Source of the DNA: Lingula anatina
Taxonomy: Eukaryota > Animalia > Brachiopoda
DNA: 64,000 nt
Reading direction: 5' to 3'
NCBI GenBank assembly: GCA_051362555.1
Contig: CM120648.1
Span: 1,279,721 to 1,343,720 of the forward strand
The first letter of the stretch is position 1. Each line of letters begins with the position of its first letter. Shown here in pieces: positions 24,295-40,303 of this stretch. Below the pieces are notes generated by a model that ran no database searches, was not told the origin of the DNA, and saw only the letters and a program-made list of their open reading frames with translations. A program made the position numbers and the translations under genes.

Positions 24295-27200
24295 ATGTAA
24301 GTATGGATCACTTTAAATAAGTACTCGTCAACCTGATGTTGATATTTGTTAAGTCGAGAAAATACTTTATGAGTAGAAATTAGACGCCGAGTCCGTCGTT
24401 GCAACCGAATGTCAGTCGATCATCGATCAAAATATTGTCAACACGACGAAAAGATTTATATCTTCCATTTGATTTGCCTGCATTTTAAAAGTGACATTGC
24501 CATGGTAGTTGAATATTTGTCCGTCAGATATCCCAGCTCATAGTTCAGACCGTTAGTCGAATTGTCAGTTATTTTGTCATGTCACGAAAACCACATATAT
24601 CTACTATTATTAAATGCAGGAAGTGAGGGTCGTGTATAATGAAATGGCGAATTTATCGACTTTTTTCAACAGCCAATATATCGTTTTGCAATGGTTTCAT
24701 GTTGAACAAAGTTTCTTTCTGAAAGAAATGACCCACTTTTCAAGTAACCCATTCAGTCTACAAGTGGATTGCATGATGACCCTATGCATGTGATGCATGC
24801 ATGTATGATTCATTGTGTAAATAAATACAATCAGTTTATTAAAAGTTTATGCAAGGTCACTGTGTTGTTGGCCTTGGAAAAAAGTGATACACAGTGGGAG
24901 AGTGAGAGCTCCACTTCCTAGTGCCTGGCTCCCAGTCATTTTAGAACTGATGGACTTGTGGCACAGTGGAAGAAATATTGTATAATGAAAGTATAAGTTG
25001 CTCCTGAAGTATGACAATTTTGTTTTCTTTCTTTCTTTATACTCATATGTAACTGTGTTTTATTTATGTATATATAAATGAAACTAAATGTGCCGAAGTA
25101 TTTGTGTCGAACATATTCACAAATACTGGTGGAATCATTATATATTTATATTGCATACATACTGGTACCGTACATATGAAGCCATTTTCACACCAACTGC
25201 AGGAAGGTCCTGTGAGTATTCTCAATTGTTTCTAAAATGAGATTGTCATTGGCTCCAAAGGTTGTACTTGTAGAACTCCCATGTGGCATTTTCACCCATG
25301 ATAGTGTGAGACAGTCAGAGTTTTAAAAGGGTGATTTTTCATTATCAACTCTATGTCAACTCTATTAACTTAAACTGTGAATGAAGGTGAACAATGCCAA
25401 ATGGTTTGAAGCTCGCCCAAATTTATAACATTTTTGTTTGTTAAAAGCTCTCTTAAATATATGGGAAGAGACTAGTCAAAAGGCATGATATTGAAGAGTT
25501 AATCAATTTATCATCCCACATTAGGAAGCAAAATATCCTTCTTTATATATATATTGTCCAGTTTGTTTTTTCTCCCTTTGGTGTACACCATAGTCACCTA
25601 CGAATTACGAACTTGGTTGTTAAGTTTAATTTCTTTAAATACACTGTAGAAAGTAAAACTAGATCAGATGGAAATTAATTAATGGCAGATAAATATAGTT
25701 TATGCCAATAAGATTATTTTTGATGGAAACTGAAAATAATTAACTTGGAAATTCAAAGTATCAAATGCATGAAAATAAGGTGTCTGAAATTTGAGAGTCA
25801 TACTTGTGTGGAAATGCTATTGATTGATCAGAGGCTATAAGACGCATTGCAAGGCAGCTCTTGATCAATAATTTATGTTAATGAGGTCAATTTGATACCA
25901 GAGTTAGAATATTGATTGAAGAAAGTGGTGTCATGCAGTTTAGCTGATCTATTCAGAATGGGAGAGATGCAGCATTCAATTTCAGACATAAAAAATGCTT
26001 TAATAGCTTTGATATAAGGGCTTCCCTGGTATTGAACTCAGGAAAATTGGATTTATGGTTAATGTGCTGTCTATTATTGAAAAAAAGGCTTTGCACTGAC
26101 ATGTACCAACCATATTGTAAGTGTGAAAATCGAGCAGGAAGTGAAGCAGGTTGTTTGAAGCACACCATCCTAAGAAAGGGCTTTTTTTGACATTGCAAAA
26201 ATTTTAATTTTGATTAAGAAGTTATCATAAGGCAAAAAAGCTGTGTATTTGATATATGCATTTACCCATAACTTTGAGACCACACGGGGAGCTCATGTTG
26301 ACAAGAGTTTTCAAAGTAAAAGGAAAGTTAACTAATGCATTTAATAAAAATGATTGATTGACTAAATAAATAAATAAAGTGATATCATACAATTTGAATT
26401 TTGGAAAAATAAGACTGTTGTAACTGACTTTTTGGCAATAAAGGGAATTGATAAGGCAACAAAAAGGGTTTTGGATGGAGTAATTTACAGAAAGAAATTG
26501 ACATACAAGTGTTGAATGTTAATATTACAGTGTTCAGTATAATGTTGATGATTTCATTGCATGCAACCACAGGGCTGCACCAAACCCTGAGACACCAGGT
26601 GGCCCTCCGTAAGTCCTCAGGCCAAGACAGGCCTGTCCAGTGTTTTTCTGCTTACTTGTTTCAATATTTTTTCTGAACTTTAGTTTTGACTTTGGTCAGC
26701 AGTGAACATTTTTCTGTAGAGGTCTGATTTCTTAATTATTTTTTAATTTGGTATAAAATAATCCATTTATTTCTGTTTGTGTGTGCAAATATTATTTATT
26801 ATTGATCATTGATTGTTATTGACTTTTAAGCAATTCCAGAAAGTTCTTCACAATATTTCGTGATATATTTGAGAAAAATTAAATTAACATTTTTGAAAGC
26901 AATCTTGTGTGTTAAAGTTGTGTTCATATTAAAAAGATTGAATTATTATAATTTACAGTTTGATTTTTGTTATTACTATAGTTATCACAGAAATATTGCT
27001 TCCCGTATGTTTTAGTTTTATACTTTCTTTCATAAATATTTGCAATAATGGCAGTTACTTAGGAAAGGTTATGGCCGTGTGCACATTAAGTGTTTATTTA
27101 CTTTTTTCCATGATTTCTATGGTTTGTAAATAAACTTTGTAGTACTGCACTTTTTATTGTATATAGTATATTTCATAATTAAGTGAATATTTGAAATATT

Positions 27201-40300: not shown

Positions 40301-40303
40301 TAA
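24295..40303 (+). CDS. VAMP: Synaptobrevin/VAMP1-2-3-like R-SNARE, whole gene with multiple alternative exon clusters
   Basis: Split start codon AT|gtaagt (24295-24296) + G of exon 27575-27659 gives [34 protein letters not shown] motif [46 protein letters not shown], followed by a TM exon. Confidence 0.96.
26573..26608 (+). CDS. VAMP: VAMP 36-nt in-frame cassette (micro)exon, giving [13 protein letters not shown]
   Basis: ttgcatgcaaccacag|GGCTGCA...GGCCCTCC|gtaagt. Symmetric phase 2-2, no stop, Pro/Gly composition matching the VAMP N-terminus. Confidence 0.7.
28531..28781. mobile_element. MITE related to family B, 73 bp upstream of VAMP exon 3a
   Basis: TIRs cagggccgtagcct / aggctacggccctg, GTAGC TSD. 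Confidence 0.8.
28855..28933 (+). CDS. VAMP: VAMP exon 3a ([26 protein letters not shown])
   Basis: 79 nt, tctcag|...GCAG|gtaac, phase 0-1. Confidence 0.93.
29492..29570 (+). CDS. VAMP: VAMP exon 3b ([26 protein letters not shown])
   Basis: 79 nt, cctag|...GCAG|gtaat, phase 0-1. Differences from 3a are mostly synonymous. Confidence 0.92.
30154..30232 (+). CDS. VAMP: VAMP exon 3c ([26 protein letters not shown])
   Basis: 79 nt, ttcttag|...GCAG|gtaaat, phase 0-1. Confidence 0.92.
31921..32187. mobile_element. TIR element (piggyBac-like ends) just upstream of VAMP exon 4a
   Basis: cctctgcgaaaatttgtttcatttaaagttcacttac ... gtaagtgagcgttaaacgagaccaatttttgcagggg, flanked by TCAA/TCAA. A partial inverted copy lies at ~60818-60998. 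Confidence 0.7.
32242..32321 (+). CDS. VAMP: VAMP exon 4a ([27 protein letters not shown])
   Basis: 80 nt, ttctcag|AT...AAG|gtaga, phase 1-0. Confidence 0.93.
33226..33305 (+). CDS. VAMP: VAMP exon 4b ([27 protein letters not shown])
   Basis: 80 nt, tttttaatag|AA...AAG|gttca, phase 1-0. Confidence 0.9.
34580..34631 (+). CDS. VAMP: VAMP transmembrane exon 5a ([17 protein letters not shown])
   Basis: 52 nt, ttcctag|...G|gtaag, phase 0-1. Confidence 0.88.
34798..34849 (+). CDS. VAMP: VAMP transmembrane exon 5b ([17 protein letters not shown])
   Basis: 52 nt, cccctcag|...G|gtaagt, phase 0-1. Confidence 0.88.
35506..35557 (+). CDS. VAMP: VAMP transmembrane exon 5c ([17 protein letters not shown])
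   Basis: 52 nt, long pyrimidine tract, tttcag|...G|gtaagt, phase 0-1. Confidence 0.9.
37486..37578 (+). repeat. 31-bp degenerate tandem repeat x3 in a VAMP intron
   Basis: tgttgctatggtttataccttatgctctccc / tgttgccatggtcactaccctatgccctcct / tgttgtcatggttcatacactatgcccaccc. Confidence 0.75.
38010..38170 (+). CDS. VAMP: VAMP alternative terminal exon with long Ala/Pro/Gly luminal tail ([19 protein letters not shown]...GGGQ*)
   Basis: ttcccattgcag acceptor in phase 1. GC-rich coding-like island that completes the TM helix. AATAAA at 39413-39418. Confidence 0.82.
40218..40303 (+). CDS. VAMP: VAMP alternative terminal exon ([28 protein letters not shown])
   Basis: ttttttatag acceptor in phase 1. 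VWIV completes the TM helix. Long putative 3' UTR to AATAAA at 42946-42951. Confidence 0.8.

Follow-up and report, generated by a model that had tools for sequence, protein, structure and literature searches.

The window analyzed here, a stretch of 64,000 nucleotides (nt) from the brachiopod Lingula anatina, contains a synaptobrevin locus, as identified by matches to the RefSeq VAMP isoforms of the species, to Pfam, and to PDB. The gene is confirmed as a single Lingula synaptobrevin (R-SNARE) with alternatively spliced duplicated exons, and its transmembrane (TM) exons are of two kinds, which we call M-type (Gly at the position of VAMP2 Gly100) and W-type (Trp at position 2 and Ile at position 6 of the exon). 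Because these kinds of anchor exon match vertebrate VAMP1/2 and VAMP3, respectively, the vertebrate genes have likely each kept one half of an exon choice that long predates vertebrates. We consider it likely, with real room for doubt, that one splicing gene with a choice of TM segment represents an ancient two-way switch, which vertebrates divided between VAMP1/2 and VAMP3. A bolder version, whose chances we judge to be a little better than even, is that a single synaptobrevin gene in the last ancestor shared by protostomes and deuterostomes offered a choice of two TM exons (Gly100 in one, Trp2/Ile6 in the other), and that the splice switch was kept in brachiopods, molluscs, and nemerteans and fixed as VAMP1/2 versus VAMP3 by the genome duplications of vertebrates.

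Exon organization and selection on the copies

The encoded protein matches Pfam Synaptobrevin (PF00957) with 106.6 and 107.4 bits against a cut-off of 26.4 and, judging from its sequence and a comparison with PDB 2kog, has one C-terminal TM segment behind a WW linker and no longin domain; a role in vesicle fusion together with syntaxin and SNAP-25 is predicted by homology. All exons lie on the forward strand. Exon 1 ends with the first two bases of a split start codon (24295..24296) and is joined to exon 2 (24296>27575) in all four RNA runs used. The constitutive exon 2 (27575..27659), defined by splice sites, reads, and frame, carries the N-terminus and the start of the SNARE motif, and a 36-nt cassette exon ahead of it (26573..26608; AG/GT ends, frame, and a 26608>27575 joint) adds an in-frame Pro/Gly-rich N-terminal insert. 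The SNARE motif's N-terminal half, with its zero-layer Arg, is encoded three times, by 3a (28855..28933; reads in run X18, and RefSeq X3, X5, and X6), 3b (29492..29570; RefSeq X4), and 3c (30154..30232; reads, and RefSeq X1, X2, and X10), the last being the major form in these runs. The C-terminal half is encoded by 4a (32242..32321), an ancestral-like copy that includes the juxtamembrane linker, is entered by reads, and occurs in 7/7 RefSeq isoforms retrieved, and by 4b (33226..33305), a divergent, read-supported copy that is the major form. The TM exons comprise two M-type copies, 5a (34580..34631; 5a>40218 reads, RefSeq X2 and X5, and a place in the M-type clade) and 5b (34798..34849; RefSeq X1, X3, X4, X6, and X10), and the VAMP3-like W-type 5c (35506..35557; 5c>40218 reads, and a place with VAMP3 in the W-type clade), again the major form. 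The coding parts of the terminal exons are 6a (38010..38170; RefSeq X1–X6), with a long Pro/Ala/Gly luminal tail, and 6b (40218..40303; reads, and RefSeq X10, there as an allele with a small indel), behind which read depth in the 3′ untranslated region extends to ~42900.

All eight internal copies are intact, with AG/GT ends, no stops, and lengths of 79/79/79, 80/80, and 52/52/52 nt, and in silico joining takes 36 of 36 one-of-each paths to a terminal stop. Neighbors within a cluster are homologous, agree in length and phase, and keep their splice sites intact, and so qualify as tandem duplicates. The preliminary description of this DNA had proposed just such a clustered 3 × 2 × 3 array with open frames, at least two terminal exons, a cassette exon, and a zero-layer Arg kept by all exon-3 copies, and these elements were found, with small corrections to the exon bounds (the ATG is split as AT/G, with 24296 as the last base of exon 1, and exon 2 spans 27575–27659). 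A tblastn search of the window with the eight exon peptides gave no additional exon copy or second synaptobrevin beyond low-complexity noise. Two more acceptor-like sites on the forward strand, at 36743 and 39521, have a phase that would fit extra terminal exons; no listed read supports them.

The purifying selection that had been proposed from the pattern of differences between copies is borne out, as the proportion of nonsynonymous differences (pN) is significantly lower than that of synonymous differences (pS) in six of seven within-cluster exon pairs. The ratio pN/pS is 0.05–0.08 within cluster 3 (Fisher p ≤ 6e-6; 0.06–0.08 for 3b), 0.28 for 4a/4b, 0.29 for 5a/5b, and 0.44 for 5a/5c, the exception being 5b/5c (0.92, not significant). 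Between 3a and 3b/3c, synonymous sites are near saturation and residues are conserved; 3b/3c is the youngest pair of the cluster (pS 0.53).

Transcript evidence and the paths in use

The RNA evidence comes from 4 of 9 raw runs labeled as this species, belonging to three studies, with 6–25% of each run's reads used; counts are given in the run order X12/X15/X18/X14 and cover 15 of 17 joints. Twelve of these 15 are GT..AG joints of the synaptobrevin gene, and none links two members of one cluster. Exon 2 is entered from exon 1 by 27/17/77/41 reads and from the cassette by 0/0/4/0 (run X18 only), and leads to 3c (27/12/53/18) or 3a (0/0/23/0). From 3c, reads continue to 4b (27/12/52/24) or 4a (13/0/18/5), and from 3a likewise to 4b (0/0/14/0) or 4a (0/0/8/0); 4b continues to 5c (27/12/62/17), and 6b is reached from 5c (52/23/96/42) or 5a (0/0/5/0). 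Reads converge on one exon 1, one exon 2, and one exon 6b, in keeping with the earlier claim of a single start and a single exon 2 serving all copies, and at least two members of each internal cluster are spliced to common flanks (3a/3c and 4a/4b, and 5a/5c to 6b). Use is, in the reads, not confined to one exon per cluster; for 3b, 5b, and 6a the evidence of use comes from RefSeq models only.

Seven RefSeq isoforms of Lingula were compared, X1–X6 and X10, with X7–X9 left out. VAMP isoform X3 corresponds to exons 2-3a-4a-5b-6a, and the other paths are 3c-4a-5b-6a (X1), 3c-4a-5a-6a (X2), 3b-4a-5b-6a (X4), 3a-4a-5a-6a (X5), and 3c-4a-5b-6b (X10), while X6 starts short, at 3a. Together with one path inferred from reads, the six full-length models bring support to about 7 of 36 paths, and 3c-4b-5c-6b is dominant in all four RNA runs. 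The combinatorial claim of the preliminary description survives in part: clusters 3 and 4 do mix, with four of the six possible pairings observed in reads and no coupling in run X18 (3a-4a 8, 3a-4b 14, 3c-4a 18, 3c-4b 52; Fisher p = 0.42), but a repertoire of 36 or 72 products goes beyond the paths supported.

A different account of the locus is that it runs two or three coupled programs (for example 4a-5a/5b-6a vs. 4b-5c-6b) in place of a 36-way code, the other joints being splicing noise. It would explain why all seven retrieved RefSeq isoforms pair 4a with 5a/5b, six of them with 6a, and why the listed reads exit 4b solely to 5c and 5c solely to 6b. However, members of clusters 3 and 4 pair without restriction in run X18 (p = 0.42), the 5a>6b reads and RefSeq X10 (5b-6b) cross over between the programs, and the RefSeq set, which lacks X7–X9, was looked up by clusters in a way that favors similar isoforms. 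We regard coupled programs as a serious contender that falls somewhat short of an even chance; they are compatible with an ancient TM pair.

How far use of the copies may be exclusive

Joining two members of a cluster shifts the reading frame, from which it had been argued that use must be one-of-n. For clusters 3 and 4 the argument is sound. It breaks down in cluster 5, in which double inclusion puts the stop into the last exon, outside the 50-nt rule. By this rule, a stop sufficiently upstream of the last junction leads to nonsense-mediated decay, and double inclusions in cluster 3 or 4 would be removable by decay because their stop lies 81–219 nt ahead of that junction. These two clusters are likely used with firm exclusivity, which would arise from splice-site competition, with double inclusions cleared by nonsense-mediated decay; cluster 5 is likely leaky. 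Gene models in three other species (Physella, Magallana, and Lineus) appear to hold both TM exons. In each of the three (Physella X3, Magallana P0140, and Lineus X3), the tail agrees with an out-of-frame W exon behind the M exon at 17/17 positions, as against 8/17 for M-type controls, which implies the Lingula exon order and extends the pair to a nemertean. The public models P0236, P0140, and P0130, with Cys/Tyr-rich “luminal tails,” are cases of both TM exons with the second out of frame, by leaky splicing or annotation error.

The intron between 5a and 5b has a fold score of z = −1.0. A 38-nt inverted repeat before 4a (31920–31957/32151–32188) has the look of a repeated element, since the reads over it are loose-ended with many mismatches, and is left out as a splicing structure. 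Inverted-repeat elements lie just upstream of both 4a (31920–32188) and 3a (~28540–28780), and their loose-ended reads indicate that they are repeated elsewhere.

Two types of TM exon across animals

Nine molluscs have M/W isoform pairs from the same gene, as judged at the level of isoform numbering, a shared contig, and identical flanks rather than genomic DNA. In Aplysia, Liolophura, Biomphalaria, Physella, and Mercenaria the two isoforms are identical outside the 17-residue TM exon, and in Haliotis, Ruditapes, Ostrea, and Magallana they have identical SNARE exons plus one more difference elsewhere. Two Aplysia isoforms differ at seven TM residues only, and the Swiss-Prot Aplysia synaptobrevin is M-type. 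The transcripts L008 and L051 are 94–100% identical on both flanks and 44% identical in the 52-nt TM window. No genomic exon array was present among the best 80 of 268 metagenome loci, 73 being intronless coding stretches.

The same types recur in vertebrates, with the M-type in VAMP1/2 and the W-type in VAMP3. An M-type query retrieved vertebrate VAMP1/2 and a W-type query VAMP3, a way of fetching rows that biases toward type match. Similarity between matched types exceeded that between crossed types in 55 of 55 comparisons (which are not independent), also without columns 2 and 6. In a TM tree of 40 rows by only 20 low-complexity columns, with an unsettled bootstrap, the types separate at 97/99 and a single vertebrate clade is rejected by the approximately unbiased (AU) test (p-AU 0.006); for the SNARE-exon tree a single vertebrate clade is not rejected (p-AU 0.50). 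Arthropods hold both types, W in ticks and spiders and M in crustaceans and insects, and the W-types of a chiton and of chondrichthyans are nearly identical. Two further transcripts, L032 and L057, have a linker motif and a beginning of the tail like those of the Lingula 4b-5c-6b path and may mark a related general-secretion form in a different animal.

What the exon choice would change in the protein

By the SNARE layer numbering, none of the 12 variable positions of the SNARE motif (four in cluster 3 and eight in cluster 4, the latter being the changes that set 4b apart) falls on a layer. As they all lie off the layers, core zippering is expected to be unaltered; the isoforms would zip with the same syntaxin and SNAP-25 partners and would differ on the outer surface contacted by regulators. 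In the TM exon, position 6 corresponds to VAMP2 Gly100 and is Gly in 5a and 5b. Exon 5c has Ile there, and Trp at position 2; the numbering agrees with the consensus in PMC5460238. The choice would tune TM flexibility, dimerization, fusion-pore behavior, or sorting, with the M-type likely the regulated or neuronal form and the W-type the general one. A sequence-specific role of the v-SNARE TM segment is contested between two papers: G100V partly lowers secretion and G100V/C103V loses nearly all of it (PMC5460238), whereas G100L is harmless to secretion and overall beta-branched content is stressed instead (PMC4972536), a result that speaks against our view of the switch. A functional role is plausible but disputed. 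The retention, in a brachiopod and across molluscs, of a natural switch that alters the TM segment alone speaks for a function under selection. Studies of invertebrate synaptobrevin have likely examined one isoform among several.

A probable inherited exon choice and its alternatives

The differences between the TM segments of the vertebrate paralogs coincide with the alternative exons of an unduplicated protostome gene, the outgroups being protostomes only. VAMP2 and VAMP3 are treated as whole-genome-duplication paralogs in PMC5543598. Taken with the M/W isoform pairs, the type-wise TM tree, the SNARE exons that do not sort by type, and this paralogy point to one ancestral gene that held the two exons. 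The pre-vertebrate gene would have carried the two TM exons, and the duplication paralogs would have each retained one by reciprocal loss.

A number of observations count against this history or against an elaborate switch at the locus. A Lingula-only clade of 5a, 5b, and 5c is not rejected (p-AU 0.23), the TM tree has the short alignment and unsettled bootstrap already noted, and the vertebrate rows were retrieved by type. The dichotomy has exceptions, since neither type fits 7 of 137 distinct TM strings from proteins and 16 of 57 from loci; five of them have Trp2 with Gly6. The spider TM pair is not an M/W pair and consists of the W-type and a third “I-type” shared with Priapulus. No invertebrate deuterostome appears among the named protein matches, so the pre-vertebrate gene itself is not seen. 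On the transcript side, the RNA runs have no tissue labels. Exons 3b, 5b, and 6a do not occur in the 15 listed joints; 4a is entered by 44 reads coming from 3a and 3c, and no listed joint leads out of it. A joint 3a>5c (28933>35506; eight reads with four starts, run X18 only) passes over exon 4 altogether; the product would be frameshifted, lack a membrane anchor, and, with its stop in the last exon, evade decay. Docking/selector RNA pairing gave no common dock; 2 of 8 duplexes scored better than 12 shuffles, and they did so at differing purine- or C-rich sites.

As an observation apart, the third conserved TM type occurs in a spider, a priapulid, and a centipede model (P0008, P0405, and P0012; L028) and branches within the W-type (98/99).

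Several of these points are also what one would expect if the splicing clusters are real and the likeness of 5c and the mollusc W exon to VAMP3 is convergent, a general-secretion anchor repeatedly gaining Trp2 and losing its glycine, so that the spiralian pair has nothing to do with the vertebrate paralog split. The unrejected monophyly of the Lingula exons, the mixed TM types, the lack of an invertebrate deuterostome link among the named matches, and the retrieval bias fit this account, as does a comparison of only 17 low-complexity residues. Convergence does not readily explain a type match that persists without columns 2 and 6, the rejection of vertebrate TM monophyly, the presence of both types in arthropods, or the near identity of the chiton and chondrichthyan W-types, and we think it unlikely, with roughly the weight of a one-in-several chance. 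Far less probable is a bilaterian ancestor with separate M and W synaptobrevin genes that merged into one locus in spiralians and stayed apart in vertebrates. Such a history would likewise yield a type-wise TM tree, but the SNARE exons are common to and identical between M and W isoforms, the vertebrate SNARE exons do not sort with the invertebrate types, and VAMP2/3 are described as genome-duplication paralogs (PMC5543598). Mis-assembled haplotypes or separate genes, or decaying pseudo-exons, which the high polymorphism of the species and the lack of listed joints for 3b, 5b, and 6a might suggest, are largely refuted and barely credible, because raw reads join common exons to different copies while converging on single exons 1, 2, and 6b, the RefSeq isoforms of one locus use identical exons, and residues are retained between copies near synonymous saturation.

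If a single gene with an inherited TM choice is indeed the ancestral state, the distinction between synaptobrevin and cellubrevin is older than the genes that bear it, the divergence of VAMP2 and VAMP3 would be recast as inherited from an exon choice, and Lingula widened that choice to both halves of the SNARE helix.

Origin of clusters 3 and 4

In both SNARE-motif clusters the extra copies, like the split of 5a from 5b, are probably later additions at the level of lineages. Ten of 13 top protein matches are arthropod gene models with two successive exon-3 copies; the other three are whole-gene repeats and were excluded from this count. Tick isoforms (Ixodes and Ornithodoros, RefSeq X1/X2) differ inside exon 3 only, and no exon 3 or 4 swap occurs among the mollusc isoforms retrieved. 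Orthology of the Lingula copies with the arthropod pair found no support, as the SNARE-exon tree groups the Lingula copies together and apart from the arthropod ones (83/93), a weak result because the rows share exon 4a. The duplications of exon 3 in Lingula and in arthropods were probably independent.

Neighboring genes

Head to head with synaptobrevin, upstream, lies a gene on the reverse strand (20856–23955) with DUF1681 in 5/5 pieces scanned, which we take to be of the NECAP family. The two start codons are ~340 bp apart, and a shared promoter is possible. Downstream lies an intronless galactosyltransferase open reading frame (ORF) on the reverse strand (43456–44481; PF01762), presumably B3GALT6-like. 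In humans, NECAP1 lies near VAMP1, and NECAP2 and B3GALT6 lie near VAMP3; the linkage may be the same as in Lingula and, if these positions hold, would support descent from one locus. Elsewhere in the window (550–15946, forward strand), seven similar EF-hand coding exons stand in tandem, some behind signal-peptide-like ORFs, as if secreted calcium-binding proteins had expanded locally.

Comparison with known systems

The automated RefSeq models (XP_013393957-63, and X10) already list the 3a/3b/3c, 5a/5b, and 6a/6b alternatives. They are unreviewed and uninterpreted, and none of the seven retrieved contains 4b or 5c, the major read-supported exons. We found no description of synaptobrevin exon clusters in the literature searched, mostly open papers seen by abstract, and the available portion of PMC7934909 does not mention splicing.

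Serial mutually exclusive clusters with combinatorial potential are known from Dscam. The Lingula gene differs in having at most 36–72 paths, a protein of ~120–150 residues, and no docking/selector structure found. Like arthropod synaptobrevin, it has a duplicated 79-nt exon for the SNARE motif's N-terminal half; the variable residues differ. With vertebrate VAMP1/VAMP2 and VAMP3 (cellubrevin), it shares the domain layout and the zero-layer Arg (PF00957, PDB 2kog). The M-type and W-type TM sequences of VAMP1/2 and VAMP3 appear in a table of PMC4972536; they belong to separate genes in vertebrates, whereas in Lingula and molluscs they are alternative exons of one gene.

The closest parallel is vertebrate SNAP-25, another exocytic SNARE, whose exons 5a and 5b arose by tandem duplication and are mutually exclusive (PMC2581893). 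In both genes few residues change and the membrane-attachment region is affected. SNAP-25, however, is a Q-SNARE with one two-exon cluster, while the Lingula R-SNARE has four stacked clusters spanning nearly the whole protein, and one of its exon pairs maps to paralogous genes elsewhere. Mutually exclusive duplicated SNARE exons were thus known from SNAP-25.

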